A stretch of 64,000 bases of DNA. Origin: an uncultured Phycisphaerales bacterium (GTDB lineage Bacteria; Planctomycetota; B15-G4). The stretch lies in assembly GCA_964490005.1 (NCBI GenBank), contig CAZBBB010000007.1:842-64841 (forward strand), in the 5' to 3' direction. The translations under genes were made by a program, and so were the position numbers. Below, in pieces: positions 25,078-46,923 of this stretch (its first letter is position 1; every line of letters starts with the position of its first letter). Under the pieces are notes generated by a model. That model ran no database searches, was not told the DNA's origin, and worked only from the letters and a program-made list of their open reading frames with translations.

Positions 25078-28000
25078 ATGAATCCCGCCACGACGTCCTC
25101 CGCGTCCCCGCCCAAGCGCCGTCGCTGGCCGCTCGTCGTCGGCGGCACGCTCGCGCTGCTCGTGGTGCTCGTGATCGTGGCGCCGCTGATCGCGGCGCCG
25201 ATCGTGCGCGGTCTCATCGAGGAGCAGGGGAGCGCGAACATCCACGGCACGGTGGCGCTCGCCGACCTCTCGCTCTCGCTGGGCGGCTCGGCCAGCGCGC
25301 GCGGCCTGGAGGTCGTCGACGACCGCGGCGAGCGCGTGGCGACGATCGGCCTGATCGACGTGCAGGCGGAAGTGCTGCCCGCGCTCTCGGGGCGCTACCG
25401 CGCCGATGTGATCGTCGAAGACCTCGAACTGCACGTGCGGCGCGACGCGGACGGCACGCTCAACCTCGCGCGGTTGGCGAAGCCCGCCGCCGCGGGGGAC
25501 GCGGCCAGCCCGGGCAGCAGGGCGGGCGCCGGCGGGGCCTCGACGATTCCGGACGTGACGGCCAGCCTCAAGCTGCAGCGCGGCACCGTCATCGTGCATG
25601 GCACGGCCGGCCGCACCGAACTGCGCGACCTCACGCTGCAGGCCCACGTCGTGGCCCTCGACCAACCGGCCCCCTTCGACCTGAGCGCGCGCGTCGTCGG
25701 CCCCTCCGGCGAGGGCGGCACGCTGCGGGTCAGCGGCAGCGCGACGGCGGCGGGCAACGGCCGGCTCGACGGCAGCGGGCTGTCGGCGGTCGTCGAGTAC
25801 GCGCTCGACTCGCTGCTGCTCGAGGCGCTCGCTCCGGCGGTCTCGGCCTTCGCGCCCGTCGACGCGTTGGGCGGCGGGCTGCAGGCGAGCGGCTCCTGGG
25901 CCTGGAACGGCGGGCTCGCGCTCACCGGCCAGACCGAGTGGGCGCTGTCGAACGTGCGGGTCGTGGCCGCGGCGCTGGGCGAGGAGGCGGTGGCGATCCC
26001 CTCGATGCGGCTGTCGGCGCGCGCCGAACTCGACGCGCAGGGTGACGGCCGGCAGGGGGTGCAGATCGACGCCGGCTCGCTGCTCACGCTGCGCTACGAG
26101 GGCACGGTGCGCGGCGCGACGGGCGCCGCGCCGGCGCTCGCGGGCACCGTTCAGGCCAGCGGCCAGCTCGCCGAAGTGCTGGCGCTGGCGGGCGAGCATC
26201 TCTCATTGAAGGCCGGCGTGCAGCCTTCGGGTGCGTTCACGGCGGGTGCCGAGTTCGACCTGCAATTCTCGGAGACGGGCCTGCCGGGCGGGCGCCTGTC
26301 CGCCAACGTGGGGCTGGCCGAACTGGCGGCGCGCGACGCCGAGGGTCGGCCGATCGACCTCGGCGAACTCACGTCGGTCGACGTCGCGGTCGCGGCCACG
26401 GCCGATCCGTCCGCGGGGCGCATGGAGTTGACCTCTCTGCAGCTCACGGCCGGGCCCGTCGTGGCGCGGGCCCAGGGCCGGATCAGCGGCTGGATCCCCG
26501 ACGGCGATCCGGCCCGCCTCGAGGTCTCCGACGGCGAACTCTTCGCGAGCGCGGACCTCGATCGGCTGCAGACGCTGCTCGCGCCGCTGCTGGCGTCCGG
26601 CGTGCCGGCGCTGGGAGGCCGCGTCGAGATCGAGTCGACGCTCGGCATGCGCGAGGGGCGCCTGGCGGCGCTGAGCAACGTGCGCGTCGAGCGGCTGCTC
26701 GCGCGCGGCGTGCCCGCGGGCGACGGCCTCGCCGACCTCGGGCCGCTCGACCTGACGCTGCTGCAGGAGGCCGATTTCGACCCGGCGCCGGGCGGCGAGG
26801 CGCGGCTGCATCGCCTGCAACTGCGCTCGGCCGCGCTCGACGTCGACGCCTCCGGCGCCGTGAAGGACCCGCTCGATGCGGCGCGTCGCGCCGGGCGCAT
26901 CACGCAGTCGGTGCGCGTGCGGCCGGCGCTGGCCGCGCAGCAGTTCGGCGCCTTCCTGGCGGGTTTCGTGCCTGCCGGTGAGGCGCTGACGATCGACCAG
27001 ACGCTCGACATCGACGGGGCGCAGCTCAGCGTCGCCGCGCGCGTGACGGCGCCGCAGCTCGCGGTGCATGGCGGCGCGCTCGGCGAAGAGGGCGCGCGCG
27101 TCGCGGACCTCGACGTCGAACTCGCGGCGGCGGCCGGGATGGAGACGCTCGCCGTCGACGTGCGCTCGTTCCGCGCCGCGTTCAGTGCGTTGAGCGCGAT
27201 GGGCAGCGAGCTGCCTGCCGTGGCTGCCACGCTGCAGGCGCGCTGGGATCCGGCCGCCGGGCTGCTCGAGGTCCCGTCCTTGCGACTCGACTCGCCGCTG
27301 CTCGCAGGCGGAGGCAGCGTGCGCGTGGGCGGTCTGCCCGACGCGCCGGCCGCGTCGGCCGATCTGGTCTTCGAAGGCCAGACCGAGCCGCTCCGGGCCT
27401 TCGTCGCCGGCTTCCTGCCGGCGCTCGCGCCGGCACGCGGCGAAGGTTCCTGGCGCGTGGCGCTTTCGGCCGCCAACGAGGGCCAGCGCACGCGCGTGCA
27501 GCCGGAGTTCCGCACGACGGGCCTGTCGCTCACCGGGCTCGTCGTGGACGGCCGCGAGTTGCCCCTGCGGGACGCCGACCTGGCGCTCACGGGCGACATC
27601 GACTTCGACGCGTCGGGCGGCGGGCGCGCGCTCATCGAAGCGCTGCGGTTCGTCGGCCCCGGAGTCGAACTGGACGTCAAGGGCAGCGCCGCCGGCCTGC
27701 TGGCGCTCACGCCCGGGGCGCTGCTGCCGCCCGAACTCGAGAGCGAACTCCAGGTGCAGCTGCAGGCGCAGCCCGGCCTGCTCGCCGAGCGCCTGTCGGC
27801 CTTCCTCGGCGGCCTCGGCCTGCAGGGCGAGGCGCTGGCCGCCGGCGTCGATCTCGCGACCCGCGACGGACGCGCGCAGGTCAAGGCGCAGCTCTCCGGC
27901 CCGCGTCTGCGCATCGACCTGCCGCCCGACGAGGCGAGCGGCAAGGGGCCGGCCACGATCGAGCAGCGCGACCTGGCGCTGAACGTCGACGCGGAGGCGG

Positions 28001-29727
28001 ACCTGCGCGCGGGCTCGGACCTGCTCACGATCCGCGCGGCGGAGTTCCGTTCCGCGACGGCGCAGGCCTCGGTGGTCGGCGAGGTGCGCAGCTTCCTGCA
28101 GCCGGCGGCGCTCTCGAGCGACCTGACCCTGCGCGTCGACGCGACGCTGCAGCGGCTGCTCGCCGACCTGGGCGCGGTGCTGCCGCTGGCCGGCTGGCAG
28201 GGGAGCGGCGCGCTCGCGCTGGAAGGCGCGGTGCGCGGCACCGCCGGGCGCGTCGGCGTGCGGGCGCGCGCGAGCATCGCCGACCTCGACCTCAAGCTGC
28301 CGGCCTCGACGCCCGGCGGCGCGCCGGTGGCGATCGCCGATCGCGACGTCGCGCTCGACATCGATGCCGACGTGACGCTGCCCGCCGTCGACCTCGACTT
28401 GCGGGAGGCGACGGTACGTTCGAGCTTCCTGCGCGGCACGCTGAGCGGCCAGGCCCGCGCGCTGGCGCGCGCCGGCGCCGGGCCCGACGCCGCGGGCGCC
28501 GTCGCGACGCTCGCCCCGTTGAAGGGCGAGCTGTACTACGTGCCCGACAAGCTCGGCGCGCTGCTCGCACCCTTCGTGCCCGTCAAGCTCTCGGGCGCCG
28601 ACGAGCGCCCGCTGAGCTTCCGCTTCGACGGGCCGCTCTCGTCCTTCGATCCGGTCGCGCTGCTGGGCGGGCTGCAAGGCGAGGCGACGGTGGGGCTGGG
28701 CCGGCTCGAACTGGCGGGCTTCACCGCGGGCGGGGCGCTGAGCACGCGCCTCGCCGAGGGCCGGGCCGATGTCGACGGCACGCTGCAGCTGCTCGGCGGC
28801 GCGGTCACGGTGCAGGCCCGGCTCGATGCGCGCCCGGCGGGCGCCGGTCCCGTCTCGCGTCTGCAGGTCACGGCCAAGGACGTGGGCGCCGACGGCAGCC
28901 TGGGCCCGCTGCTGGCGATGGTGCACCCGCTGCTCGCGGGCGCCAAGGATGCCGACGTCGGCAGCTACGGCGCGCGCCTGTCCACGACGCTCGACTTCAG
29001 CTGGGCCGGGGCGCTGCCCCTCGACGGCGCGCTGCCGACCGACTTCAAGGCGCTCTCCGGCACCGGCCTGGTCGACCTCAGCCAGCTGAAGCTCTCGGCT
29101 TCGCCGCTGCTGGGCCAGATGCTCAGTCAGCTCGATCAGGGCTCGACGAAGGAGTTCGCGCTGCAGCCGCTGGAGTTCGCGGTCAAGGACGGGCGCGTCG
29201 GCTACACGAAACCTTGGGTCTGGTCGATCTCGAAGGTGCCGACCAGCTTCACGGGATCGGTTGGCCTCGACGGCAGCCTCGACCTGACGTGGAACGTGCC
29301 GGTCACGGACAAGCTGCGCGAGAAGCACAAGTTCCTCGCCAAGCTGGGCGCCGAGTCGCTGGCGATCCCGATCCGCGGATCGGCCGCCGCGCCCGACCTG
29401 CAGTGGGGCGCGACGCTCGAGAATCTCGCCAAGCAGGCCCTCGAGAAGGAGCTCAAGGACAAGGTCGACGAGAAACTCGGCGGAGTGCTCGGCGGACTGG
29501 GCGGACTGGGCGGACTGGGCGGCGCGAAGGACGATGCGCCCCCGCCTCCCGGCGGGGCGAACGTGACGCCTGAGGCGCTGCTCGCCCAGGCCGACGCGTT
29601 GTGGGCGCAGGGCAACAAGGCCGACGCGATGCCGCTCTATCAGCGCCTGAAGGACGACTTCAAGCTGACGATGGTGTTCATCCTCAACAAGAAGAAGATC
29701 GAGAAGCGCGCCAAGGGCGAGGACTGA
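25078..29727 (+). CDS. AsmA/TamB-like giant envelope protein (1549 aa)
   Basis: N-terminal TM anchor (WPLVVGGTLALLVVLVIVAPLIAAP). Long beta-rich Ala/Leu/Gly/Asp repetitive body. AsmA-like C-terminal region (PLEFAVKDGRVGY...IPIRGSAAAPDLQW) followed by a Lys-rich tail. Confidence 0.85.
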   Translation: MNPATTSSASPPKRRRWPLVVGGTLALLVVLVIVAPLIAAPIVRGLIEEQGSANIHGTVALADLSLSLGGSASARGLEVVDDRGERVATIGLIDVQAEVLPALSGRYRADVIVEDLELHVRRDADGTLNLARLAKPAAAGDAASPGSRAGAGGASTIPDVTASLKLQRGTVIVHGTAGRTELRDLTLQAHVVALDQPAPFDLSARVVGPSGEGGTLRVSGSATAAGNGRLDGSGLSAVVEYALDSLLLEALAPAVSAFAPVDALGGGLQASGSWAWNGGLALTGQTEWALSNVRVVAAALGEEAVAIPSMRLSARAELDAQGDGRQGVQIDAGSLLTLRYEGTVRGATGAAPALAGTVQASGQLAEVLALAGEHLSLKAGVQPSGAFTAGAEFDLQFSETGLPGGRLSANVGLAELAARDAEGRPIDLGELTSVDVAVAATADPSAGRMELTSLQLTAGPVVARAQGRISGWIPDGDPARLEVSDGELFASADLDRLQTLLAPLLASGVPALGGRVEIESTLGMREGRLAALSNVRVERLLARGVPAGDGLADLGPLDLTLLQEADFDPAPGGEARLHRLQLRSAALDVDASGAVKDPLDAARRAGRITQSVRVRPALAAQQFGAFLAGFVPAGEALTIDQTLDIDGAQLSVAARVTAPQLAVHGGALGEEGARVADLDVELAAAAGMETLAVDVRSFRAAFSALSAMGSELPAVAATLQARWDPAAGLLEVPSLRLDSPLLAGGGSVRVGGLPDAPAASADLVFEGQTEPLRAFVAGFLPALAPARGEGSWRVALSAANEGQRTRVQPEFRTTGLSLTGLVVDGRELPLRDADLALTGDIDFDASGGGRALIEALRFVGPGVELDVKGSAAGLLALTPGALLPPELESELQVQLQAQPGLLAERLSAFLGGLGLQGEALAAGVDLATRDGRAQVKAQLSGPRLRIDLPPDEASGKGPATIEQRDLALNVDAEADLRAGSDLLTIRAAEFRSATAQASVVGEVRSFLQPAALSSDLTLRVDATLQRLLADLGAVLPLAGWQGSGALALEGAVRGTAGRVGVRARASIADLDLKLPASTPGGAPVAIADRDVALDIDADVTLPAVDLDLREATVRSSFLRGTLSGQARALARAGAGPDAAGAVATLAPLKGELYYVPDKLGALLAPFVPVKLSGADERPLSFRFDGPLSSFDPVALLGGLQGEATVGLGRLELAGFTAGGALSTRLAEGRADVDGTLQLLGGAVTVQARLDARPAGAGPVSRLQVTAKDVGADGSLGPLLAMVHPLLAGAKDADVGSYGARLSTTLDFSWAGALPLDGALPTDFKALSGTGLVDLSQLKLSASPLLGQMLSQLDQGSTKEFALQPLEFAVKDGRVGYTKPWVWSISKVPTSFTGSVGLDGSLDLTWNVPVTDKLREKHKFLAKLGAESLAIPIRGSAAAPDLQWGATLENLAKQALEKELKDKVDEKLGGVLGGLGGLGGLGGAKDDAPPPPGGANVTPEALLAQADALWAQGNKADAMPLYQRLKDDFKLTMVFILNKKKIEKRAKGED

Positions 29728-34049: not shown

Positions 34050-34125
34050 TGGAGCGGGTGACCGGGTTCGAACCGGCGACATTCAGCTTGGGAAGCTGAC
34101 ACTCTGCCAACTGAGTTACACCCGC
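34050..34125 (-). tRNA. tRNA-Gly (anticodon CCC), CCA encoded
   Basis: Hand-folded: acceptor GCGGGTG/CACCCGC, D arm ACTC-AGTTGGCA-GAGT, anticodon arm TCAGC-TTCCCAA-GCTGA, T arm GCCGG-TTCGAAC-CCGGT, discriminator U plus CCA. Length 76 nt. Confidence 0.95.
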
Positions 34126-34193: not shown

Positions 34194-34303
34194 GGGCCGT
34201 GCGTCGTCGCCCACGACGCTCGCGCGATCGCCGATTGACTCGCCGGGGCGCCGCGCCGGACACTCGCGATTCCTTCCGACCACGGCCCGCAGCGGCGCCA
34301 CGC

Positions 34304-34816
34304 ATGGTCTCCGATCGCCCCTCGACCACCCTCCTGCGCAGTCTGCGCCTGGTCGTCTTCGATTTCGACGGCGTGTTCACGGACAACACCGTGATCGTGC
34401 ACCAGGACGGGACCGAGTCGGTGCGTTGCTGGCGCAGCGACGGCTTGGGGATCGCGCGCCTGCGGGCCACCGGCGTGGAACTCGCGGTGCTCTCGACGGA
34501 GCAGAACCCGGTCGTCAGCGCGCGCTGCGCCAAGTTGCGCCTCGAGTGCATCCAGGGTTGCGAGGAGAAGGGCGCCGCCCTGCGCGCGCTCGCGGCGCGC
34601 CGTGCCGTTCCGCTGGCGCGGGTCGCATACGTCGGCAACGACGTGAACGACATCACGAGTCTCCGGCTCGCGGGTCTGCCGATCGCGGTCGCCGATGCCC
34701 ACCCGAGCATCCTCCCGTTGGCGGAATACCGCACGCGGGCCCGCGGAGGCCGCGGTGCCGTGCGCGAGATCTGCGACATGATCGCCGCCGCGCACGAGGC
34801 GTCGCCCGAGTGCTGA
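34304..34816 (+). CDS. HAD-superfamily YrbI/KdsC-type ulosonate-phosphate phosphatase
   Basis: VFDFDGVFTDN nucleophile motif, then S-T...K and GNDVND motifs typical of KDO-8-P/KDN-9-P phosphatases. ATG at 34304; the track start adds an Arg-rich extension. Confidence 0.85.
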   Translation: MVSDRPSTTLLRSLRLVVFDFDGVFTDNTVIVHQDGTESVRCWRSDGLGIARLRATGVELAVLSTEQNPVVSARCAKLRLECIQGCEEKGAALRALAARRAVPLARVAYVGNDVNDITSLRLAGLPIAVADAHPSILPLAEYRTRARGGRGAVREICDMIAAAHEASPEC

Positions 34817-34887: not shown

Positions 34888-37131
34888 ATGGCGCGTCGCA
34901 CGTTCACGATTCGAGCCGGGATGTCACGCACGACCAAGGGACTCTTCGCGCTGGCCGCCGCCGCGATCCTGAGCTGCGGCGCCTGGTACGGCGGCCTGGA
35001 CGGGGCGAGTCTGGCCCTGCTGGCCGTCTTCGCGGCTGCGAGCTGGGTCGCCTACCGGCGAGTCATGCGCCGGCAGCACAAGGACACGGTGCTGCTCGCC
35101 GACGCCTTGGACGAGCAGGCGCGCGCGTGCGCCGAGTTGCGCCGGCAATTGGATTCCCGCACGGAGAGCCTCGAGGAGGTCGTGCGCGGGACGAGCACGG
35201 CGCTCGCGGCGGCGCTGTCGGCCCGCTTCGACGAACTCAAGAAACGATCGGCGGCGACCGACGAGGCGCTCCGGGAACTCGACACCCGGCTGCGGCTCGC
35301 GACCGAGGACCAGCGCGGCCGTCTCGACGAAGTCCGCGCCGAGGGACGTGAGCGGGCCGGGAAGCTCGAGCAGATCGTCGCCGAGCACGCACTGCGCGCG
35401 GAGGAGGCGCGCCGGGTCGCCGAAGCCGTGCGCGCGGCCGCGGCGTCCGGCGAGCACGCGCTGTCCCGCCTCGACGCCCTGGTCCGCGGACACTCCGAGG
35501 CCCTGGACACGCATGCGCGGAGTCTGGAGGAAGCGCTCGACCTCCGTGCACGCCGCTTGGACGAAGTGCTGGAGACCCGTGCCCGGGACCTGGCCGAGGC
35601 CCTGGACACGCATGCGCGGCGTCAGGCGGAGGCGCATGCGGCGCTGCTGCGCGAGCAGGCCGAAGCGACCTCGCGCCTCGATGCGCTCGCGCAGGGCCAG
35701 GCGAGCGGCGGCGAGGGCGACCGCATCCGGCACGCCGAACTCGTCGCGGCGCTCCAGCGACTCGAGTCCGCCGGGAGCGCCGCGGCCGACGCCACCGCCC
35801 GGCACGGTGACGCGCTGATCCGCGCCAGCGAGAGGATGCTCGCGGGCATCGAACTCGTCCGGGAGGCGCAGCGATCGTCGACGACCTCGCACGCGCAGTT
35901 CTCGGAGCGCCTCGAGCGCGAGCTGGCCGGCCTCGCCCGCGCGGAGGACCTCGCCCGCCTGCTCGAGGCGGGGCGACGGCTGAAGGAATCCTCTGAGGAG
36001 AACTTCGACGGGCTGCGCCAGGCACTGGGAGCGCTCGCCGGAGACCTCGAGCGGCAGACCGCACCGGCAGCGACGAAACTGGCCGACCTGCTGCGGGCCG
36101 CCGACGCGACGAGCGTGCGACTCGACGCGTTGGGGGAGCAGGCGCGCGCCGCGCACGCCACGCTCGAGCGCCTCGCGGAGCAGGCGGCGCGGCTGCCGTC
36201 CGCGCCGGACGCCGAGCGCCTGCAGGCCGAGTTTCGCGACGCGGCGAAGGCGCGCGCCAAGGTCGTCAAGGCGGTGCGCGTGTCCGGCGAGTCGCTCCAG
36301 CGCGAGCTGCGCTACCTCGTCGACACGATGCTGCACGACAAGCTCCATCCGCCCGCGGCCCCGGACAACGAACTCGCGAAGTACGCGCAGCGGCGCTTCG
36401 AGAAGCACCGGGAGACGATCGACTTCGCGCGGGCCGTCGAGGACAGCCGGCTGCGCGAGCTGTATCTGGCCGAGATCCTGCCCGACGTCGCCAAGGTGTC
36501 GCTCCCCGTCGGGGCCGTGCAGGAACTCACCGGCCACGCGAACAAGGTGGACATGCTGTTCGTGTGCGCCATCGCCAAGCACCGCAAGGCCCGGCGCATC
36601 CTCGAGTTCGGCACCTACCTCGGGCGCACGACCTACCACCTCACGTACGCGTCTCCCTCGGCGCACGTCACCACCGTGGCCCTGCCCGACGCGCAGGCGG
36701 CGGTCTACGGCGCGTTCGAGGTCGGCAGCTTCTACCGAGGCACCGCTCGGGAGAAGCGCATCACCGAACTGCGCCTCGACTCGGGGCAGCTCGACGAGCA
36801 GGAGTACGAGCAGCGGTTCGACTTCATCCTGATCGACGGCGACCACAGCTACGAGGGCGTGCGGAGCGACTCCGAGAAGGCCTTCAAGATGCTGCGCCGG
36901 GGCGGCGCGATCCTGTGGCACGACTTCGCGCCCAAGACGCCGGGCGTCGTCCGCTATGCTCGCGAACTGTCGCAGCAGCTGCCGCTGTTCCGGATCAAGC
37001 GCACGAGCCTGCTCATGCACATCGACGGCGTCGATCCGCTGGGCTTCAAGGAGCACCCGCTGCCCGACTCGCTCGAGTTGCGGCGCCTGCGCGAGGACCC
37101 GTTCTTCATCGAGGAGCTCTACCATGCGTGA
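34888..37131 (+). CDS. membrane-anchored long coiled-coil protein with a C-terminal class I SAM-dependent methyltransferase domain
   Basis: Two N-terminal hydrophobic helices, then about 430 aa of heptad-like E/R/A/L sequence. C-terminal domain has ILEFGTYLGRTT...FDFILIDGDHSYEG...GGAILWHD (Methyltransf_24 / O-MT family 3-like). Confidence 0.85.
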   Translation: MARRTFTIRAGMSRTTKGLFALAAAAILSCGAWYGGLDGASLALLAVFAAASWVAYRRVMRRQHKDTVLLADALDEQARACAELRRQLDSRTESLEEVVRGTSTALAAALSARFDELKKRSAATDEALRELDTRLRLATEDQRGRLDEVRAEGRERAGKLEQIVAEHALRAEEARRVAEAVRAAAASGEHALSRLDALVRGHSEALDTHARSLEEALDLRARRLDEVLETRARDLAEALDTHARRQAEAHAALLREQAEATSRLDALAQGQASGGEGDRIRHAELVAALQRLESAGSAAADATARHGDALIRASERMLAGIELVREAQRSSTTSHAQFSERLERELAGLARAEDLARLLEAGRRLKESSEENFDGLRQALGALAGDLERQTAPAATKLADLLRAADATSVRLDALGEQARAAHATLERLAEQAARLPSAPDAERLQAEFRDAAKARAKVVKAVRVSGESLQRELRYLVDTMLHDKLHPPAAPDNELAKYAQRRFEKHRETIDFARAVEDSRLRELYLAEILPDVAKVSLPVGAVQELTGHANKVDMLFVCAIAKHRKARRILEFGTYLGRTTYHLTYASPSAHVTTVALPDAQAAVYGAFEVGSFYRGTAREKRITELRLDSGQLDEQEYEQRFDFILIDGDHSYEGVRSDSEKAFKMLRRGGAILWHDFAPKTPGVVRYARELSQQLPLFRIKRTSLLMHIDGVDPLGFKEHPLPDSLELRRLREDPFFIEELYHA
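35495..35619 (+). repeat. exact 26-nt direct repeat inside the coiled-coil region
   Basis: CCGAGGCCCTGGACACGCATGCGCGG occurs at 35495-35520 and 35594-35619, offset 99 nt (33 codons). It encodes (S/A)EALDTHAR twice. Confidence 0.9.
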
Positions 37132-38773
37132 GGCGCCGGGCGGCACGCCGCCCGCCCCCGGCGGCTGGGCGGGGCTCCTCGGCCGGGACGCGGCGGCCTG
37201 GGAGCGGGCGCGCGCCGACGCGCAGGGGCCGCGCGTGCTGTTCGCGACGAGCATGGGCGGCTTCGTGCTCGGCTCGCTGGTCGAGAGCGCGCTGGCCGCC
37301 GCGCTCACGCTGCGCGGAGCGCGCGTCGAGTTCCTGCTCTGCGACAGCGCCCTGCCCGGCTGCCAGCAGACCGAGATCGGCAACACGACGCCCGCGCAGG
37401 TGCGCGAGGCTCCGCCGCTGCCCCGCTGCGAGAAGTGCGAGCGCGTGGGCGGCGAGATCCTCGACCCGCTCGGCCTCGTGGTCCACCGCTACGGCGACGA
37501 GCTCGAACCCCGCGACCGGGAGGAGGCGGCGCGCCTCGCCGCGTCGGTGCCGCTCGCGGAGGTCGGCGCCTTCCGGCACGACGGGCTCGCGGTCGGCGAG
37601 CACGCCCGCGCCGGCGCCCTGCGCTATTTCGCGCGGGGCGACTTCGAGGGCGAGCCCGAGGCCCCGCTCGTCGTGCGCCGCTTCCTCGAAGCCGCGCTGC
37701 TCACGGTTCGCGCCACGCGCCGCCTCATCGCGCGGCGCGGCATCGAGATCGCCTGCTTCCACCACGGGATCTACGTGCCGCAGGGCCTGATCGGCGAGGT
37801 CTGCCGGTCGATGGGCGTGCGCGTCGTGAACTGGAACCCCTCCTACCGCCGCGGCACCTTCGTCTTCAGCCACCACGACAGCTACCACCGCACGATGATC
37901 AGCGAACCGGTCGCGACCTGGGAGGACCGGCCGTGGGGGCCCGAGACGGAGCGCGCGACGATGGCCTACCTCGCGAGCCGCCGCCGCGGCACCGAGGACT
38001 GGATCTGGTTCCACGAGACGCCCGAGGAGGACGCGCGCGCCATCGAGCGCGCCTGCGGCGTGGACTTCTCGCGACCGTGCGTCGCGCTGCTGACCAGCGT
38101 CGTGTGGGACGCGCAACTGCACTACGCGAGCAACGCCTTTCCCGACATGACGAGCTGGGTGCTGCGCACGATCGAGTGGTTCGCCGGCCGGCCCGACCTG
38201 CAGCTCGTCGTGCGCGTCCATCCCGCCGAGATCCACGGGGGCGTCCCCTCGCGGCAGCGGATGGCCGACGAGATCGCCCGCCGCTTCGCCGCGCTGCCGC
38301 CGAACGTGTTCGTGCTCGGTCCGGAGAGCAGCGCGAGCACCTACACGATCGTCGACCGCTGCAACGCCGCACTCATCTACAACACCAAGACCGGCATCGA
38401 GGTCAGCGCGCAGGGCATCCCCGTGATCGTGGCCGGGGAGGCCTGGGTGCGCGGCAAGGGCTTCACGCTCGACGCCCGCAGCGCGGCCGAGTACTTCGAA
38501 CTGCTCGGCCGCCTGCCGCTCCCGGGCCGCCTGCCGGCCGCGCAGGTGCTGCGCGCGCGCCGCTACGCGCACCACTTCTTCTTCCGGCGGATGATCCGCC
38601 TGCCCTTCGTGGCTCAGGACCCCAAGGGCCGCTTCGTGCTCGGCGTGGAGAGCCTGCAGCGGCTCGCGCCGGGCGCGACGCCCGAACTCGACGCGGTGTG
38701 CGCCGGCATCCTCGAGGGGCTGCCGTTCGTGTTCGATCCCGCGCCGCGGGAGGGCGTCGCGCATGGGGCCTGA
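37124..38773 (+). CDS. capsule-polysaccharide-biosynthesis (KpsC/KpsS-like, Capsule_synth family) protein, paralogue A
   Basis: 549 aa. The ATG overlaps the previous gene's end. Conserved blocks are shared with 48052-49755 (HHG.YVPQGLIG, VVNWNP, VVWDAQLHY, LVVRVHPAE, GIPVIVAGEAWVRGKG). 4-Cys motif LLCD.ALP.C...C..C. Confidence 0.7.
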   Translation: MREAPGGTPPAPGGWAGLLGRDAAAWERARADAQGPRVLFATSMGGFVLGSLVESALAAALTLRGARVEFLLCDSALPGCQQTEIGNTTPAQVREAPPLPRCEKCERVGGEILDPLGLVVHRYGDELEPRDREEAARLAASVPLAEVGAFRHDGLAVGEHARAGALRYFARGDFEGEPEAPLVVRRFLEAALLTVRATRRLIARRGIEIACFHHGIYVPQGLIGEVCRSMGVRVVNWNPSYRRGTFVFSHHDSYHRTMISEPVATWEDRPWGPETERATMAYLASRRRGTEDWIWFHETPEEDARAIERACGVDFSRPCVALLTSVVWDAQLHYASNAFPDMTSWVLRTIEWFAGRPDLQLVVRVHPAEIHGGVPSRQRMADEIARRFAALPPNVFVLGPESSASTYTIVDRCNAALIYNTKTGIEVSAQGIPVIVAGEAWVRGKGFTLDARSAAEYFELLGRLPLPGRLPAAQVLRARRYAHHFFFRRMIRLPFVAQDPKGRFVLGVESLQRLAPGATPELDAVCAGILEGLPFVFDPAPREGVAHGA

Positions 38774-40553
38774 ACCGCGCCGGCCGCTCGCGCTCGGCAT
38801 CCACTGGGCGCACGACGCGGCCGTCGCCATCTGCTCGCCCGACGGCCTCGTCTTCGCGCTCGCCGAGGAGCGGCTGTCGCGCATCAAGCACCACTACGGC
38901 TTTCCGATCCGCGCCGTTCGCGAGGCGCTCTCGGCTTGCGGCCTGAGCGGCGCCGACATCGACGTCTTCGCGTTCTCCTCGACCAAGCGCTTCTTCCCGC
39001 AGCATCGCAACGACGCGATCGTCCAGCAGGACGGCCGCTGCACGCTGCCGGAGCCGCCGCCCGGCGGCTTCGTGACGCCGAGTCCACGCGTCCATCCCGC
39101 CCCCGAGACGCTCGGCCCGCAGTGGCGCGGGTTCGAGGACCGCCACTGGGCGCACCACGCGCCCGAGCTCGAGCGCCTGGGCCTGATGGACGAGCGCATC
39201 CGCTACTACTGCGTGGCGCACCACCGCGCCCACGCCGCGAGCGCCTTTCGCCTCGGCGGCATGGAGGAGGCCGCCGTGCTCACGATCGACGGCAAGGGCG
39301 ACGGCCTGGGGGCGACGATCAGCCGCGGCCACGCCGACGGCCGGCTCGAGCTGCTGCGGACCTCGCGCGCGCAGGACAGCCTCGGATCCTTCTACCAGGC
39401 CGTGACCGAGACGCTCGGCTTCGTGCCCGTCGACGGCGAGTACAAGACGATGGGGCTGGCGGCCCTGGCCGAGGCGCCGCCGGACGCCAATCCCTTCGAG
39501 GGCCTCGTGCGCGTCGAGGACGGCGTGCTGCACTCGCGGATGGCCTGGGAGTTCCGCGACTTCAACGCCGCCAACCCGGCCCTGGCCGTGCCCAACCCGA
39601 TCACCTCGCCGCGGCAGTGCGAGGACTTCAAGCGCTTCCTGCGCGAGCTGTCGCGCGAGCAGCTCGCGGCGCACGCCCAGGCGCACTGCGAGCAGAACGT
39701 GCTGGCGCTGGCGCGCGACGCGCTGCGCCTCACGGGGCGGCGGCGGCTCGTCGCGGCGGGCGGCGTGATGCTCAACGTGAAGGCCAATGCGCGCATCCGG
39801 GACGAGCTGGGCCTGGCGCAGGACGACGTGTTCGTGTTCCCCGACGCCTCCGACTCCGGCCTCGCGGCCGGCGCGGCGATGGAGGCGCTCTGGCAGGCCG
39901 GCGCCGTGCGCGCGCCGCTGCGCCTGCACTCGCCGTATCTCGGGCCCGCGTTCGCGCCGGCCGCGATCGACGCGGCGGTCGCCGACTGGCGCGCGACGGG
40001 CCGCGTCCTCGCCGAACCCTGCACGCCCGCGCAGCTCGCCGGCCACCTCGCGGGCGGCGCCGTCGTCGGCAGCTTCCAGGGACGCATGGAGATGGGGCCG
40101 CGCGCCCTCGGCAACCGCTCGGTGCTCGCCGATCCGCGCGACCCGCGCGTCAAGGACCGCATCAACGGCATGCTCAAGGGCCGCGAGTGGTTCGTGCCCT
40201 TCGCGCCCGCGGTGCTGGCCGACGAGGCCCCGGGGCTGTGGGACGGCGGAGGCGAGCACCGCTTCATGACCTTCGCCGTGCGCGCGAGCGAGCGGGCGCG
40301 GCGCGTCGCGCCCGCGGTCGTGCACGTCGACGGCACGATGCGGCCCCAGGTCGTCACGCCCGAATCCAACGCCTGGCTGCACGAGGTGCTGAGCGCGTTC
40401 CGCGCGCGCACGGGCGTCGGAGTGCTGCTGAACACCTCCTTCAATCGCCACGGCCTGCCGATCGTGGGTTCGCCCGGCGACGCGCTCGAGCACCTCGAGC
40501 GCGGCTGGGTCGACGCGCTCGCGATCGGGCGCTGGTACGTGCGGCGGAGCTGA
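38763..40553 (+). CDS. carbamoyltransferase (NodU/CmcH family)
   Basis: 596 aa. Contains HDAAVAI, ERLSRIKH, VAHHRAHAASAF, GGVMLNVKAN and NTSFN motifs typical of the family. Confidence 0.92.
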   Translation: MGPEPRRPLALGIHWAHDAAVAICSPDGLVFALAEERLSRIKHHYGFPIRAVREALSACGLSGADIDVFAFSSTKRFFPQHRNDAIVQQDGRCTLPEPPPGGFVTPSPRVHPAPETLGPQWRGFEDRHWAHHAPELERLGLMDERIRYYCVAHHRAHAASAFRLGGMEEAAVLTIDGKGDGLGATISRGHADGRLELLRTSRAQDSLGSFYQAVTETLGFVPVDGEYKTMGLAALAEAPPDANPFEGLVRVEDGVLHSRMAWEFRDFNAANPALAVPNPITSPRQCEDFKRFLRELSREQLAAHAQAHCEQNVLALARDALRLTGRRRLVAAGGVMLNVKANARIRDELGLAQDDVFVFPDASDSGLAAGAAMEALWQAGAVRAPLRLHSPYLGPAFAPAAIDAAVADWRATGRVLAEPCTPAQLAGHLAGGAVVGSFQGRMEMGPRALGNRSVLADPRDPRVKDRINGMLKGREWFVPFAPAVLADEAPGLWDGGGEHRFMTFAVRASERARRVAPAVVHVDGTMRPQVVTPESNAWLHEVLSAFRARTGVGVLLNTSFNRHGLPIVGSPGDALEHLERGWVDALAIGRWYVRRS

Positions 40554-40560: not shown

Positions 40561-41661
40561 GTGCGCGTCCTCCACGTCATCCCCGACAGCGCCGGGAAGG
40601 AGCGCCATCGCTTTCTCGGCAGCACCAAGGACGCCCTCGGCCGCACGGAGTACTTCGAGGCGCGCGGCATCGCCTGCGAGACGATGCCGGTTCCCGAGCG
40701 CTCGGACGAGCGGTTGCGCGAGCAGCTGCGCGCCGCCGACCTGCGCGGCTTCGACGCGGCGGTCCTCGAGCTGCCGCTCTACCCGAAGTCGATCGCCTGG
40801 CTGCGGCGCACGCACCCGGCGCTGCGGATCTTCACGCGCGCGATCAACGCCGAGTTCCTGCACCAGCTGCACCTGGTCCGCAGCCACCGGCGCTACCCGT
40901 TCGCGGGCAAGAACCGCCACGAGGCGCTGCGCGACGTCGCGCGGGGGCTGCTGCGCCTGCGCCTCGACCGGGCCTGCGCGCGCCGCTCGCACGCGCTGCT
41001 CAGCATCACGGAGTGGGAGTCGCGCCACTACTGGCGCCGCCTGGCGGGCGCCGAGCGCGTGCGCACCGTGCCGTACTTCCTGCCGCGCGCGTACGTCGAC
41101 GAGATCCCGCGCGGCGTCGCCAAGGCCAACCATTGCGTCTGCATGCTGAGCACGTCATTCTCGCTGACGCCCTTCCCGCTCGACGCGGCCAGCAACTTCG
41201 GCGAGATGGTCCGCCACCTCGGTGCCAAGCGCCCGGAGTGGGAATTCTCGATCACCGGCTCGCTGGAGGTGCGCACGCGCCACTACCGCGTGCTGGACAC
41301 GACGTTGTGGATGCCGCCGCGCGTGCGCAAGCTGGGTTTCGTCGAGTCGCCGCTGGACGTGCTGGCCGGCGCGCGCGTGATGGCCGTGCTGAGCGACCTC
41401 GGCTACGGCTTCAAGACGAAGATCCTCGACGCCATCCTGAGCGGCTGCCACGTGCTCGTGACGGCCCGCTTGCTCGAGCGCCTGCCCGAAGTCGTCCGGC
41501 CGCACTGCCTCGTCGTCGACCTCGCGCACCCGCGCACCTTCTTCGAGGCGCTCGACCGCTGCCGCGACGCCGAGCCGGCCGGCGAGCCCAACACGGCGCT
41601 GCGCGGGCAGGCCTTCGCGGCGCTCGACGCGCTGTTCGCTCCGGCCGGGGGCCGTCCGTGA
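40561..41661 (+). CDS. divergent GT-B-fold glycosyltransferase-like protein (function unknown)
   Basis: GTG start. N-terminal MRVLHVIPD and C-terminal YGFKTKILDAILSGCHVLV resemble GT-B nucleotide-sugar transferases. No canonical EX7E motif seen. Confidence 0.65.
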   Translation: MRVLHVIPDSAGKERHRFLGSTKDALGRTEYFEARGIACETMPVPERSDERLREQLRAADLRGFDAAVLELPLYPKSIAWLRRTHPALRIFTRAINAEFLHQLHLVRSHRRYPFAGKNRHEALRDVARGLLRLRLDRACARRSHALLSITEWESRHYWRRLAGAERVRTVPYFLPRAYVDEIPRGVAKANHCVCMLSTSFSLTPFPLDAASNFGEMVRHLGAKRPEWEFSITGSLEVRTRHYRVLDTTLWMPPRVRKLGFVESPLDVLAGARVMAVLSDLGYGFKTKILDAILSGCHVLVTARLLERLPEVVRPHCLVVDLAHPRTFFEALDRCRDAEPAGEPNTALRGQAFAALDALFAPAGGRP

Positions 41662-42950
41662 GCGCCTCGGGCCGCACGGTCGACGTGCTCTGGCTGTTCG
41701 AGCACGTGGCCCGCGAACTCGACGTGGCCTGCGCCTGCGCCGCGATCCTGCGCGAGGCGCACGGGCTGAGCGTCGACGTGCGGCACGTCTACCGCGACGC
41801 GCGCGCCTGCCTCGAGGGACCGACGCCGCGCGTCGTCGCGCATCCCTTCGTCTACTTCATCGAGGGCGCGCTGGCGACCGAGGACTACGTGCGCGCCTGG
41901 CCCGCGGCGGTGCACTTCAACCTGGCCTGGGAGCAGCTGCACTACTCGGCCAACGTGAAGATGAAGGCGCCCGCCGACGCGTTCACGCGCGAGCGCGTGC
42001 GGCACCACGCCTGGGGGCGCTTCTACGGCGACTGGCTCGTGCGGCAGGGCGTCCCCGCCGACGGCGTGTTCGTCAACGGGCAGCCGGCCTACGCGCTCTA
42101 CCGGCCGCCGTACCGCGGGGGCTTCGAGTCGCGCGCCGAACTGGCCGCCCGGCACGGCCTCGACGCGGAGCGGCGCTGGGTCTTCGTGCCGGAGAACTAC
42201 CGCTGGGCCTTCGTGTCCGACAAGCGGCTGGCGACGCTCGTCGCGTGGGGGGGCGACGCCGACGAGATCCGCGAACTGCGCGCGGTCTCGCACGCCTCGC
42301 TCGCCGAGCTGCTGCGCTGGTGCCGCGACCTGGGGCGGCACGACGGGGTCGAGGTCGTCTTCCGCACGCGGCCGGCGACCGGCGAGGCGCTCATGCGGCG
42401 CTTCTTCGACGAGCAGGTGGGCGAGGGCTCGGCCGGCCTGCGCTTCCTCAAGGAGGGTTCGGTGCGCGAGTGGGTCCTGGCGTCCGATCTCACCGTCTCC
42501 TCCTACAGCACGAGCCTGATCGAAGCCGCGGTGGCCGGCCGGCACGCACTCATGGCGCTGCCGCGCGCGCTGCCCGCCGGCCTGCACTGCGACTGGTACG
42601 ACCTCGCGCCCTGCGTGCGCGATCAGGCGGCCTTCGAGCGCGTCTGCCTGGAAGGCGGCGCGCCGGCGACGGCGCTGGCGGCCTGGGCCGAGCGCGAATT
42701 GCTGCCGGCCGCCGACCCCATCGGCGCCCTGGCGGACGAGGTCGCGCGCCTCGTCCGCGAGCAGGCGGGCCGCGCGGCGCCCGCGCCCGCGCCCGTCGCG
42801 GCGCCGCCGGCCGACAGGACGTACTTCAATCCCGCCACGCATGACCGGGACGACCTGTCCCTCGCCGAGATCGAGGCCCGCATCGCACACTGGTCGCGGG
42901 TGCTGCGGCCACGGACGCCGTGCACTCCGGAGAGCATCGCCGAGCCATGA
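41658..42950 (+). CDS. polysaccharide-biosynthesis protein of unknown function (TagF/GT-B-like C-terminal half)
   Basis: The GTG start overlaps the upstream stop (GTGA). 430 aa. The segment LASDLTVSSYSTSLIEAAVAGRHAL resembles the C-terminal sugar/polyol-phosphate-transferase pattern. Confidence 0.65.
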   Translation: MSASGRTVDVLWLFEHVARELDVACACAAILREAHGLSVDVRHVYRDARACLEGPTPRVVAHPFVYFIEGALATEDYVRAWPAAVHFNLAWEQLHYSANVKMKAPADAFTRERVRHHAWGRFYGDWLVRQGVPADGVFVNGQPAYALYRPPYRGGFESRAELAARHGLDAERRWVFVPENYRWAFVSDKRLATLVAWGGDADEIRELRAVSHASLAELLRWCRDLGRHDGVEVVFRTRPATGEALMRRFFDEQVGEGSAGLRFLKEGSVREWVLASDLTVSSYSTSLIEAAVAGRHALMALPRALPAGLHCDWYDLAPCVRDQAAFERVCLEGGAPATALAAWAERELLPAADPIGALADEVARLVREQAGRAAPAPAPVAAPPADRTYFNPATHDRDDLSLAEIEARIAHWSRVLRPRTPCTPESIAEP

Positions 42951-43825
42951 ACGAGATCATCAACCGCACCATGAGCCGGGCCGACCTGCTCACCGAGGAG
43001 GGGCGCGCCGACTGCCGCGCCATCGACGAGCTGCTGCGGCGGCTGCGCGCGCGCGGACTGGCGACCTCGTCGTGGGTCGGAACGCTGCCGCCGCGCGAGG
43101 CCGAGCTGGCGGCCGCCGCCGCGGACGGCGGGCCGGCCTCCGGCATCGACGCCGACGGCATCGGCATGGATCAGCGCCTCGACTACCAACCCGTGCCGGG
43201 CGCGGCCGAGGACGCCCGCATCCCCTGGTTCCTGTACTGGGAGATCCACTGGGTGCTGCACGTGACGCGGCCGCTGCTCCGCCCCGGCATGCGCCTGCTG
43301 GACGCGGGCGGGGCGAGTTCGCTGTTCTCGTGCTTCCTCGCGTCGATGGGCTATCGCCTCGACACCGTCGACCTCAAGCAGGACCTCATGGACAACGGCA
43401 ACCTCATCGCCCGCGAGATGGGGTGGCCGGCGCGCGCGCACCGCATGGACCTGCGCGCGCTCGACTTCCCCGACGCGACCTTCGACCATGCCTATTCGAT
43501 CTGCGTCTTCGAGCACATCGACCACCCCGTGAAGCTGCAGGCGCTGGCCGAGATCGCGCGCGTGCTCAAGCCCGGCGGAATGCTCAGCCTGACCTTCGAC
43601 TGGCGCAACCCCGCTCCGGGCGTCAAGGGCTTCGGCAAGGACACGCGCCCCCAGAACCAGCTCGCGACCCAGGCCGACCTCGAGCGCAGCCTGCTCGCCG
43701 AGCCGCGCTTCGAACTGGTCGGCAACCGCCGCTTCGTGGACAACGGCGAGAACTACCTCGTGCACCGGCGCTTCGGCGACACGCCCTACACCTTCGGCGC
43801 GCTGTTCCTCAGGAAACGCGCGTGA
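42947..43825 (+). CDS. class I SAM-dependent methyltransferase
   Basis: ATGA overlap with the upstream stop. Motif I-like RLLDAGGASS and a post-I/II region (FDHAYSICVFEHI...LKPGGMLSLTF). Confidence 0.8.
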   Translation: MNEIINRTMSRADLLTEEGRADCRAIDELLRRLRARGLATSSWVGTLPPREAELAAAAADGGPASGIDADGIGMDQRLDYQPVPGAAEDARIPWFLYWEIHWVLHVTRPLLRPGMRLLDAGGASSLFSCFLASMGYRLDTVDLKQDLMDNGNLIAREMGWPARAHRMDLRALDFPDATFDHAYSICVFEHIDHPVKLQALAEIARVLKPGGMLSLTFDWRNPAPGVKGFGKDTRPQNQLATQADLERSLLAEPRFELVGNRRFVDNGENYLVHRRFGDTPYTFGALFLRKRA

Positions 43826-44781
43826 ACCCGATGATCTCGGTCATCGTCTGCACCTACAACCGCGAGGCGCTGCTCGCGCGTTGCCTGGACAGCCTGGCCG
43901 AGCAGACGCTGGACCGCGCGCTCTACGAGGTGGTCGTCGTCGAGAACAACTGCACCGACGGGACGCGGGCGCTGCTCGAGCGCCGCGCCGCTGCACAGGC
44001 CAACCTGCAGTGGACCTCCGAGACGAACCAGGGGCTGTCCTGGTCGCGCAACCGCGGGGCCACGGTGGCGCGCGGCGCCTGGCTGGCCTACATCGACGAC
44101 GACGCGCTGGCGCCGCCCGAGTACCTGCGCGGCATCCACGACGTGATCCGCGAGCACGCGCCGGACATGATCGGCGGCCCGATCCTGCCCTACTACCTCG
44201 ACAGGAAGCCGAGCTGGTTCCTCGACGAGTACGAGATCCGCAAGTACCAGGACGCGTCGGGCTTCTCGCGGACCTGCGGCGTCAAGGGCAGCAACTACGT
44301 CCTGCGCAAGGACCTGCTCGCGAAGCTGGGCGACTTCGACGTCGAGCTCGGCATGAAGGGCACGACCTCGGCCTACGGCGAGGACCGCGCGCTGCTCGTG
44401 AAGTACCGCGCGACGACGCCCAAGGCCGAGCAGCGCGTCTACTACGCGGCGCACTGTCCGATCCTGCACCTCGTGCCGCGCCACAAGATGCGGCTGGGCT
44501 ACATCATGCGCCGCCAGTACGAGGGCGGCCGCATCAGCATCTCGCTCAAGGGCAAGGTGCGCAGCGGCCGCGAGGGTCTGCGCATGCTCGCCCGCCTGCC
44601 CCTCGAGTACCTCTACGACGTGCGCAAGATCGACCGCGGTCGTCCCGAGCGGAGCTACTTCGCGGTCGAGTTCCTGCGTCGCTCGGCGCTCTACGCCGGC
44701 AAGCTGGTCGAGTGCGTCCGCATGACGGCGGGCTTCGCGCTGCGGCGGCTGTCCGGTCGCGCGCCGCGGCGGCGGGACTGA
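43822..44781 (+). CDS. family 2 glycosyltransferase
   Basis: ISVIVCTYNRE, NNCTDGT and YIDDDA motifs. GTG 43822 overlaps the upstream stop; ATG 43831 is an alternative start. Confidence 0.9.
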   Translation: MNPMISVIVCTYNREALLARCLDSLAEQTLDRALYEVVVVENNCTDGTRALLERRAAAQANLQWTSETNQGLSWSRNRGATVARGAWLAYIDDDALAPPEYLRGIHDVIREHAPDMIGGPILPYYLDRKPSWFLDEYEIRKYQDASGFSRTCGVKGSNYVLRKDLLAKLGDFDVELGMKGTTSAYGEDRALLVKYRATTPKAEQRVYYAAHCPILHLVPRHKMRLGYIMRRQYEGGRISISLKGKVRSGREGLRMLARLPLEYLYDVRKIDRGRPERSYFAVEFLRRSALYAGKLVECVRMTAGFALRRLSGRAPRRRD

Positions 44782-46042: not shown

Positions 46043-46923
46043 AGCGTGTCGACCAGTCGGCTCTCGACGCGACTGAAGGCGCGCAGGCCGAGCCACAGCA
46101 GGAGCGCGATCGCCGCCGCCGACCAGGCCAGCGCGCCGGCGGGCGGCGGCGTGTCGCCCATGAGGGCCCAGCGGAAGCCCTGCAGCAGGCCCGCGAGCGG
46201 ATTGGCGTAGTAGACGGCCTGCCAGCGCTCGGGGATGAGCGAGGCGGGATAGGTGACGGGCGAGGCGTAGAGCAGCGCGCGCAGCGCGACGGGCAGCGCG
46301 ATCTGGACGTCGCGCCGTTCGACCGAGAGCGCGGCGAGCAGCAGGCCCGCGCCGAGCGCGAGCAGCACGACCGCGAGCAGCAGCGGGAGGGCGGCGAGCG
46401 CGCCCCAGCCGGGGGCGATCCCGTAAGCGGCCATCAGGAGCAGGCAGATGCCGAGCACCGCGAGCAGGTCGAAGCTGCCGGTGCTCACGCTCGTGAGCGG
46501 CGCGATCAGGCGCGGGTAGTAGACCTTCGAGAAGGTGCCGACGTGCGCGGCGAGCGAGCCGGCCGTCTGGCGCACTGCCCCGCTGAAGAACAGGTAGATC
46601 CCCACGCCCGAGAAGATGAACAGCGGGATCGGGATGCGGTCGGCGCGCACGCCGAGCAGCACGCCGAAGACCAGCCAGTACACCGCGGCCAGCAGCAGCG
46701 GCTGCAGCAGCACCCACCAGAAGCCGAAGAAGGTGGAGCGGTAGCGCGCACGCAGCTCGCGCAGCACGAAGTGCTTCAGCAGGTGCCGGTAGGCCCACGC
46801 CTGCGGCAACCCGTAGCCGCGCCCGACCGAGTCGGGGCCGATCTCGACGCACGCGTCGGGGCCTGCGTCCGCCGGGTCGCCGACCGGGGGCGCATTCGGG
46901 AGCGTCAGGTCGGACATGGACAT
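46039..46923 (-). CDS. ABC-2-type polysaccharide exporter permease (Wzm/KpsM-like)
   Basis: 294 aa from ATG 46923, with GAGG 5 nt upstream. Six hydrophobic segments and an N-terminal YRHLLKHFVLRELRARYRSTFFGFWW motif typical of ABC-2 permeases. Confidence 0.9.
   Translation of the reverse strand: MSMSDLTLPNAPPVGDPADAGPDACVEIGPDSVGRGYGLPQAWAYRHLLKHFVLRELRARYRSTFFGFWWVLLQPLLLAAVYWLVFGVLLGVRADRIPIPLFIFSGVGIYLFFSGAVRQTAGSLAAHVGTFSKVYYPRLIAPLTSVSTGSFDLLAVLGICLLLMAAYGIAPGWGALAALPLLLAVVLLALGAGLLLAALSVERRDVQIALPVALRALLYASPVTYPASLIPERWQAVYYANPLAGLLQGFRWALMGDTPPPAGALAWSAAAIALLLWLGLRAFSRVESRLVDTL

Follow-up and report, generated by a model that had tools for sequence, protein, structure and literature searches.

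We analyzed a 64,000-nucleotide stretch of DNA (the window) from an uncultured Phycisphaerales bacterium (contig CAZBBB010000007.1) and, within it, a plus-strand gene at positions 34888-37131, here called the target, whose product begins with a membrane hairpin, continues as a long helical stalk and ends in a methyltransferase head of the Methyltransf_24 family. We propose, with a confidence balanced evenly between right and wrong, that the protein is a cytoplasm-facing, membrane-tethered sugar O-methyltransferase, dependent on S-adenosylmethionine (SAM) and probably on a metal, which caps or terminates the chains of the glycan made by its Wzm/Wzt locus. An earlier reading made from the DNA letters alone (the sequence-only reading) had cast it as a candidate chain terminator that acts as a molecular ruler. 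The parts of the gene to which we refer throughout, with residues numbered in amino acids (aa), are as follows:

34888-37131, plus strand: target gene, 747 aa, comprising hairpin, helical stalk and Methyltransf_24 head
34942-35061, plus strand: two transmembrane helices forming a hairpin, aa 19-37 and 40-58, from hydropathy windows
35065-36342, plus strand: helical stalk, aa 60-485, from AlphaFold2 secondary structure
35467-35697, plus strand: hendecad array of about seven 11-residue repeats, aa 194-270, consensus roughly ALDtrARrLaE
36304-36333, plus strand: neck motif ELRYLVDTML, aa 473-482, at the junction of stalk and head, read from the sequence
36370-37131, plus strand: methyltransferase head, aa about 495-747, Pfam PF13578

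Using the head (aa 500-747) as query, we counted as orthologues all proteins whose head was at least 40% identical to it, of which there were 72; an exhaustive search with the head against 1.84 billion representatives returned at least 49 clusters at E<1e-30. Genomic context was recovered for 15 independent orthologue loci and compared with that of 71 loci carrying distant Methyltransf_24 genes (24-39% identity). The orthologue loci came from metagenome-assembled genomes (MAGs) of Planctomycetia, Coxiellaceae, Alphaproteobacteria, Anaerolineales and Acetobacteraceae, from Sulfuritalea, Synechococcus sp. CCY 0621 and Rhizobium leguminosarum Tri-43, and from several metagenome contigs, and the head family is present in at least six phyla or classes (Planctomycetia, Coxiellaceae, Alphaproteobacteria, Sulfuritalea, Synechococcus and Anaerolineales). 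The exporter genes wzm and/or wzt flanked the methyltransferase gene in 14 of the 15 orthologue loci, compared with a single wzm among the 71 distant ones. A C-domain homologous to the Wzt_C of the window (27-47% identity) was encoded in 10 of the 15 and in none of the 71, and nine of the 15 carried a Capsule_synth-like gene (44-55% identity). In nine orthologue loci the methyltransferase gene was directly 3' of wzt or fused to it. Homologues of the target are therefore not found mainly outside glycan loci, in keeping with the sequence-only reading. In the window itself, as at loci of terminators that depend on a Wzt with a carbohydrate-binding domain, both wzm and a Wzt_C-bearing wzt are present. 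Gene content thus places the target in a Wzm/Wzt glycan locus whose Wzt bears a predicted C-terminal carbohydrate-binding domain.

The head occurs in several architectures. That of the target joins a membrane hairpin, a helical linker and the head. In a second, a GT2 glycosyltransferase precedes two membrane helices, the linker and the head (P0122 and P0124-P0132), and at one locus (L085) the gene for such a protein lies directly 3' of wzm and of a wzt with Wzt_C. A third is seen in P0148, a protein of 1084 aa (L001, 10001-13255) in which ABC_tran and Wzt_C domains are followed by about 480 mostly helical residues and a Methyltransf_24 head; its locus also encodes Wzm, NeuB, an aldehyde dehydrogenase and a HAD hydrolase, and the domain order suggests a capping enzyme tethered directly to the exporter. 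(Within the helical part of P0148, a repeat of roughly 270 aa was recognized by eye.) In a fourth, one or two GT-B-like modules precede the head (P0145, P0155 and P0157); the GT-like N-terminal domains of P0155-type fusions had no significant similarity to the 41658-42947 protein of the window (E=0.18) or to its Capsule_synth-like protein (E=0.087). The commonest architecture, found also in GTDB genomes, has no membrane helix and consists of an N-terminal helix of 30-230 aa followed by the head.

What the closest subgroup of these proteins holds constant is the distance between two motifs at the enzyme end. In 15 close relatives, a neck motif, E-[LIM]-R-[YR]-[LIV]-[TV]-D (ELRYLVD, aa 473-479, in the target), sits 99-102 aa before the FEFGT SAM motif. 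The spacer between the last membrane helix and the neck, in contrast, measures 22, 23, 30, 38, 41, 44, 45, 61, 79, 89, 115, 161 and 173 aa among relatives; in the target, going by its coordinates, it reaches 414 aa, the longest of a series that covers a roughly 20-fold range (22-414 aa). When linkers of family members were compared with one another by BLAST, no similarity was found, as expected of a spacer. A rod of varying length between conserved ends, the pattern to which the sequence-only reading had pointed as informative, is thus what the family displays.

The fold and motifs of the head are those of an enzyme. Methyltransf_24 (PF13578) matched aa 572-680 at E=6e-11, scoring 43.5 bits against a cut-off of 26.3, and was the sole Pfam match in the target above threshold. 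AlphaFold2 modeled aa 495-720 confidently (predicted local distance difference test score, pLDDT, mostly >90), and Foldseek matched the head to cation-dependent class I O-methyltransferases (5log, which is SafC; 3duw; 8c9v; and CCoAOMT-like plant enzymes) with probability 1.0, E values of ~1e-7, TM-scores on the target of 0.5-0.64 and identities of 14-23%. A sequence search of the PDB gave weak matches to the same O-methyltransferase group (3dul, E=2e-4) and no close structure, and Methyltransf_3 (PF01596) scored 14.1 bits, under its cut-off of 22, despite the strong resemblance in fold. The head contains a SAM motif (EFGTYLGR, aa 573-580), a DGDH motif (aa 650-653) and a WHD motif (aa 677-679), and E573, G575, T576, G579, D650, H653 and D679 are invariant in 73 sequences. 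Because the SAM and acidic motifs are invariant, the enzyme is probably active; by analogy with its fold family, the acidic residues would bind a metal. The assignment of a C-terminal class I SAM methyltransferase without a kinase, made earlier from the letters, therefore stands: no kinase family was detected in the target with Pfam or NCBIfam at E<=1. No WbdD chain occurred among the 27 PDB sequence matches of the head at E<=1 or among the 50 Foldseek matches listed for it.

Two further proteins, P0164 (626 aa) and P0167 (830 aa), combine a GT2 domain, a membrane helix and a linker with a head whose SAM and DGDH motifs are degenerate (for example, LIFENGGELSRY / IDGGLGYEQ and ILVLGARDDRA / VIVASEHGESH); P0167 has no Pfam methyltransferase match. 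To judge from these motifs, the two heads may be catalytically dead and kept as structural parts.

The N-terminus of the target carries two hydrophobic helices, as the sequence-only reading had said, at about aa 19-37 and 40-58, and the N-terminal helices of the AlphaFold2 model (H2-33 and H39-185) agree with this placement. Clusters of Arg and Lys lie before the first helix and after the second, and hydropathy identified no further hydrophobic segment after these two adjacent membrane helices. By the logic of the flanking charges, the stalk and head are predicted to face the cytoplasm. A two-helix hairpin is also present in the relatives P0123, P0006, P0050, P0013 and P0015, and it is placed between GT2 and the linker in P0122, P0124 and P0126. 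We considered a Tat or lipoprotein signal peptide (RRTF...LSC) at the N-terminus and judged it unlikely, given the second hydrophobic helix with its subsequent Arg/Lys cluster, the cytoplasmic nature of a SAM enzyme and an annotated start that skips the RR pair. Members of the head family without membrane helices (P0011, P0014, P0016, P0017, P0018, P0019 and P0024) have a common N-terminal motif, MKxAIxxLLNxLGLYT..., followed by YPIEDILRL, which may take the place of the hairpin as an amphipathic element for membrane binding or partner docking.

We ran AlphaFold2 twice, once with a 73-sequence alignment and once on the single sequence of aa 55-500, and both runs predicted the stalk to be helical. 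It comprises about 425 residues, ~93% of them predicted helical, with an A/L/R/E composition of 21/14/13/12% over aa 60-485. Helix breaks appeared in both models at aa 270-276, 330-334 and 435-439, and in the model built with the alignment also at 186-191, 348-352 and 369-373; a Gly-rich stretch (aa 268-279) and prolines 393, 437 and 440 coincide with breaks. The model built with the alignment divides the stalk into helices of about aa 60-185, 192-329 and 335-485, and the single-sequence model has an unbroken helix over aa 56-270, with pLDDT of ~80-88 over aa 55-175. Hydrophobic periodicity was significant but mixed (3.5-3.67 residues). We scored heptad and hendecad register with a home-made heuristic that has one positive control (tropomyosin) and a shuffle null and is not equivalent to COILS or MARCOIL. 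By this score, the register exceeded the null over about aa 80-260 and 400-480, roughly half of the stalk, but not over aa 261-400; 29% of positions were in heptad and 41% in hendecad register, compared with 86% for the tropomyosin control. The models and scores together describe a stalk that appears segmented, part heptad and part hendecad, rather than a continuous heptad coiled coil. The sequence-only reading had seen an uninterrupted heptad-like segment from about residue 65 to 500; its helicity and its richness in A, L, R and E hold, but the segment is broken and only partly heptad.

The hendecad array includes the units ALDTHARSLEE, ALDLRARRLDE, VLETRARDLAE and ALDTHARRQAE, and the identity autocorrelation of the stalk peaks at a lag of 11. 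Hendecads give a straight or right-handed coiled coil, as opposed to the classical left-handed heptad coil. The octamer EALDTHAR is present twice, at aa 204 and 237, a spacing of 33 codons that equals three hendecad periods; in the DNA, the repeat has a 26-nucleotide (nt) exact core within a 67-nt repeat of 76% identity. An 8-mer repeat was reached in 7 of 3000 composition-preserving shuffles, so the recurrence of EALDTHAR is not due to chance. What had been described as an exact duplication spaced by 33 codons thus has the right spacing, but it is exact over 8 residues only and forms part of the 11-mer array. P0001, a near-identical protein from another public contig, differs from the target in one hendecad repeat (EALDTRAR).

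Fully extended, the stalk would measure ~63 nm by arithmetic (426 aa x 0.15 nm). Its possible shapes are an extended rod of ~63 nm, a jointed rod, or a folded-back bundle of ~19-20 nm made of three passes of ~125-150 residues. The stalk-only AlphaFold2 model had a predicted TM-score (pTM) of 0.31, and a Foldseek search of the PDB with it gave a best E of 0.23, with matches to filamentous microtubule inner proteins and no fold assignment. Given these results, the stalk is not a recognizable globular helical domain.

The window has a G+C content of 74%, which accounts for its long open reading frames (ORFs) on both strands. The target ORF is a genuine gene: its G+C content by codon position (0.77/0.48/0.92) has the pattern typical of real genes in the window, and an 820-aa antisense ORF was rejected as a GC-rich shadow ORF. 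A search with the full-length target, in which 8000 word-sharing candidates were scored, had P0001 as its sole match (736 aa, 99% identical), and the cluster of P0001 has an NCBI-derived member, also of 736 aa. A publicly annotated product of this length would begin at M12 (nt 34921), which makes the start of the target ambiguous and its first 11 codons uncertain. The target had been said to open the plus-strand block of the locus. It does not: the gene for a KdsC-like HAD phosphatase (34199-34816, plus strand) precedes it, and the order is the same in the near-identical contig L002.

The coiled-coil protein WbdD adds methyl or methyl-phosphate caps, which the carbohydrate-binding domain of Wzt reads, and the length of the coil sets the length of the chain (PMC3482155, PMC11231755). 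In WbdD, WbbB and the Klebsiella O4 and O7 proteins alike, the terminator enzyme lies at the distal end of a coiled-coil protein (PMC3482155, PMC11231755). For the target, we envisage a comparable sequence of events. The N-terminal hairpin would fix the protein in the inner membrane, near the lipid-linked growing chain and the glycosyltransferases, and the segmented stalk, probably self-associating, would keep the methyltransferase head off the membrane. A non-reducing chain end that meets the head would be O-methylated and its extension thereby blocked, possibly after a Capsule_synth-like enzyme had first added a terminal ulosonic-acid residue. The methylated end would then be read by the C-terminal carbohydrate-binding domain of Wzt, licensing export, and the length of the stalk would set that of the chain. 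The two-step cap, ulosonic acid and then methylation, is speculative and is suggested by the co-conserved Capsule_synth-like protein. In favor of a terminator, the GT2 fusions have their glycosyltransferase toward the membrane and their methyltransferase at the distal end, a layout also found in WbbB and in ORF6 of Klebsiella O7 (PMC11231755).

It is possible, although we regard it as rather doubtful, that the head family is a natural allelic series of one ruler, in which the same neck and methyltransferase are combined with different anchors (hairpin, GT2 plus hairpin, or Wzt) and with spacers of 22-414 aa. If so, the target would be the longest ruler known, ~60 nm when extended, and the polymer that it specifies would be of capsule length, some 120 sugars or more. 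The fusion of Wzt, spacer and methyltransferase would then couple termination physically to the exporter and not to the polymerase, an arrangement of which we found no description in the literature searched.

Several observations weigh against a ruler-like terminator, and they bear on the alternatives as well. Among orthologues from cultured or GTDB genomes, the majority lack a membrane helix and have an N-terminal helix of only 40-185 aa; in many systems, therefore, the enzyme can do without a long rod. Between 3 and 7 breaks interrupt the helix of the stalk, and ~140 residues (aa 261-400) lack clear heptad or hendecad register; as modeled, the stalk could fold back or flex, which would bring the effective distance far below 63 nm. 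We know of no polymerase docking site on the target. Finally, Methyltransf_11, FkbM and carbamoyltransferase enzymes encoded in the locus could supply the terminal mark, as could the product of its sulfotransferase-like gene. The same surplus of capping candidates, the retention of FkbM in several orthologous loci and the many short, soluble orthologues without an anchor or a long stalk would all fit a decorating methyltransferase, one that methylates internal residues or side chains while hairpin and stalk only recruit or oligomerize it and chain length is set in some other way. Such a role has difficulty, however, in explaining the strict co-occurrence with a Wzt that bears a homologous C-domain and the fusion of the head to Wzt and Wzt_C in P0148. 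A 414-residue spacer would be costly for recruitment alone, and the layout of spacer and distal enzyme is that of known terminators (PMC11231755). We therefore consider a purely decorating enzyme unlikely.

The protein might also terminate chains without measuring them. Its helical region would then be a tether or scaffold that flexes or folds back (for example, in three antiparallel passes of ~125-150 residues), with chain length set kinetically by the ratio of terminator to polymerase. The division of the stalk at its breaks into aa 60-185, 192-329 and 335-485, the weak register over aa 261-400 and the unconserved linkers, which take nearly any length between 22 and 414 aa and are missing from many orthologues, can all be read in this way, and occupancy of polymerase sites also shapes the chain-length distribution in the WbdD system (PMC11231755). 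Yet the single-sequence model keeps aa 56-270 as one helix, confident over aa 55-175; the stalk-only model, with its low pTM, matched no compact fold in the PDB; and the precedent of WbdD and WbbB favors a role in setting distance (PMC11231755). We consider it unlikely that the protein terminates chains without measuring them. The position of the target gene directly 3' of the KdsC-like phosphatase gene, in a locus rich in precursor genes, and the small-molecule O-methyltransferases that are its nearest solved folds raise one more option, methylation of a nucleotide-activated sugar acid or of a lipid-linked primer before polymerization. But an enzyme acting on precursors needs neither a membrane anchor nor a 425-residue stalk, the head is fused to Wzt and to GT2 plus hairpin and never to precursor enzymes among the fusions seen, and its tightest linkage is to wzt rather than to the NeuB or CMP-synthetase-like gene. 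We regard action on a precursor as very improbable. A membrane-tethered terminator remains our preferred reading of the target.

The glycan locus spans about 33.1 to 59.1 kb of the window, and its plus- and minus-strand blocks converge at 44781/44795. In addition to the target, it contains the following:

33110 to about 34000, minus strand: sulfotransferase-like (Pfam NKWYS)
34050-34125, minus strand: tRNA-Gly(CCC), within the locus, between the divergent sulfotransferase-like and KdsC-like genes
34199-34816, plus strand: KdsC / KDN-9-P-phosphatase-like HAD hydrolase, the true first gene of the plus-strand block
37124-38773, plus strand: Capsule_synth (KpsC/KpsS-like), PF05159 at 23 bits (cut-off 20), overlapping the target's stop codon
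about 38770-40553, plus strand: carbamoyltransferase
40561-41661, plus strand: GT1
about 41658-42950, plus strand: unknown GT-B-like protein
42920-43825, plus strand: Methyltransf_11
about 43830-44781, plus strand: GT2
44795-46042, minus strand: Wzt, an ABC ATPase with Wzt_C (ABC_tran E=7.5e-19, Wzt_C E=2e-10)
46039-46848, minus strand: Wzm, an ABC-2 permease (ABC2_membrane E=4e-16; frame plot); its stop overlaps the wzt start by 4 nt
46905-47945, minus strand: unknown
48052-49719, minus strand: second Capsule_synth-family protein, from a tblastn match to L002; no Pfam or NCBIfam match
49752 to about 51647, minus strand: transketolase-like
51640-52407, minus strand: CMP-ulosonate synthetase-like (PseF/KdsB-like)
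52412 to about 53900, minus strand: aldehyde dehydrogenase
54675-55940, minus strand: NeuB-like synthase
55918-57054, minus strand: FkbM methyltransferase
57701-59146, plus strand: GT4/GT1

The sequence-only reading had credited this locus with a Wzt_C-bearing ATPase, which is indeed encoded there, and with KpsC/S-like putative Kdo transferases. Two Capsule_synth-like genes are present, but their sugar need not be Kdo. One gene of L002 was matched by tblastn with both the 37124-38773 protein (98% identity) and the 48052-49719 protein (54%), and through this common match the two products appear to form one family, divergent from each other. The 37124-38773 protein, a neighbor of the target with a marginal Pfam score, had no sequence match in the PDB. 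The locus has NeuB-, PseF/KdsB- and KdsC/KDN-phosphatase-like genes together with transketolase-like and aldehyde dehydrogenase genes, and since the NeuB, PseF/KdsB and KdsC/KDN-phosphatase models all scored under their equivalog cut-offs, the sugar acid is not necessarily Kdo. The ORFs of the window that were scanned had no Pfam domain of the Wzz, KpsE or KpsD type. The precursor genes and FkbM (49752-57054) co-occur with the head family in L001, L005, L006, L008, L011, L012 and L015. We also observed that the transketolase-like, aldehyde dehydrogenase, NeuB-like, CMP-synthetase-like and KdsC-like genes recur together in the window, L001, L005, L012 and L015; this set, sub-equivalog with respect to the enzymes for Neu5Ac, pseudaminic acid and Kdo, could constitute a pathway to an unusual 2-keto-3-deoxy sugar acid.

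Elsewhere in the window, a 1628-aa protein with a DUF748 match (24841-29727, plus strand), which we take to be AsmA-like, suggests together with the Wzm/Wzt locus a diderm host. The lineage is deep-branching, the best non-self match of the IspDF of the window being only 60% identical. At 11301-13226 (minus strand), HD and HD_assoc domains (dGTPase-like) and RNase III and dsRBD domains fall within one 641-aa stop-to-stop translation, which represents a fusion or else two neighboring genes in the same frame.

Length measurement of ABC-pathway polysaccharides is known from few enterobacterial proteins, namely WbdD, WbbB and those of Klebsiella O4 and O7, and the head family attains their layout in reverse orientation, with an integral membrane anchor and a methyltransferase unrelated to theirs. 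Since the spacer varies ~20-fold between fixed ends, comparing chain length with spacer length, or swapping spacers, would test the generality of the ruler directly; the spacer series and the Wzt fusion make the hypothesis testable outside enterobacteria, and the fusion suggests a further way to couple capping with export. In practical terms, the neck motif and head beside wzt offer a signature for annotating capping enzymes in uncultured bacteria. A full-text search found no paper on Methyltransf_24 or PF13578 in glycans, although the family may have been listed earlier in surveys of terminators.

Polysaccharide co-polymerases (PCPs) such as Wzz and KpsE likewise have membrane helices and a long helical segment, and they help to regulate polymer length. 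In those, the helical domain is periplasmic, lies between two membrane helices and carries no enzyme domain. We rejected an assignment of the target to the Wzz/PCP group, as its membrane helices are adjacent, its stalk is predicted to be cytoplasmic and ends in an enzyme, and it has no Wzz-family Pfam match. The fold of the head is common to SafC, CCoAOMT-like enzymes and the Bacillus cereus protein 3DUW, but those are small soluble enzymes that act on catechols and other small molecules.

The closest functional parallel is WbdD, which has a methyltransferase only in E. coli O8 and K. pneumoniae O5 and a kinase in addition in E. coli O9a and K. pneumoniae O3. Both WbdD and the target combine a SAM-methyltransferase with a long helical region at the inner membrane, both belong to a Wzm/Wzt locus with a C-domain-bearing Wzt, and for both the proposed logic is to cap the non-reducing end and then export. 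WbdD, of which structures are in the PDB, has its catalytic domain(s) at the N-terminus, followed by a C-terminal region with coiled-coil motifs (aa 460-708) and a membrane-associating amphipathic region that recruits the polymerase (PMC3482155, PMC11231755). In the target this order is reversed (hairpin, aa 19-58; stalk, 60-485; methyltransferase, 495-747), which agrees with the inverted architecture, N-terminal anchor and C-terminal enzyme, proposed in the sequence-only reading. Where WbdD has a C-terminal amphipathic helix, the target is anchored by an integral hairpin of two helices; its Methyltransf_24 head is of another methyltransferase family and comes without a kinase, and the stalk, at ~425 aa, is segmented. 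By its orientation, anchor, methyltransferase family and lack of a kinase, the target lies outside the WbdD family. WbbB of Klebsiella O12 and Raoultella and ORF6 of Klebsiella O7, in which a coiled coil separates the terminator from glycosyltransferase modules, resemble P0122 and P0124-P0132. The target polypeptide, by contrast, has no glycosyltransferase, its fused relatives have a hairpin between GT2 and the linker, and its chemistry would be methylation by an unrelated head instead of beta-Kdo transfer or methyl-phosphate addition. Coiled-coil terminators have been called a characteristic marker of the assembly strategy based on Wzm and a Wzt with a carbohydrate-binding domain, and the class has been described as widespread (PMC11231755). 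The target would therefore introduce no new principle, only a new arrangement, and by analogy it fits within this broader functional class of coiled-coil terminators.

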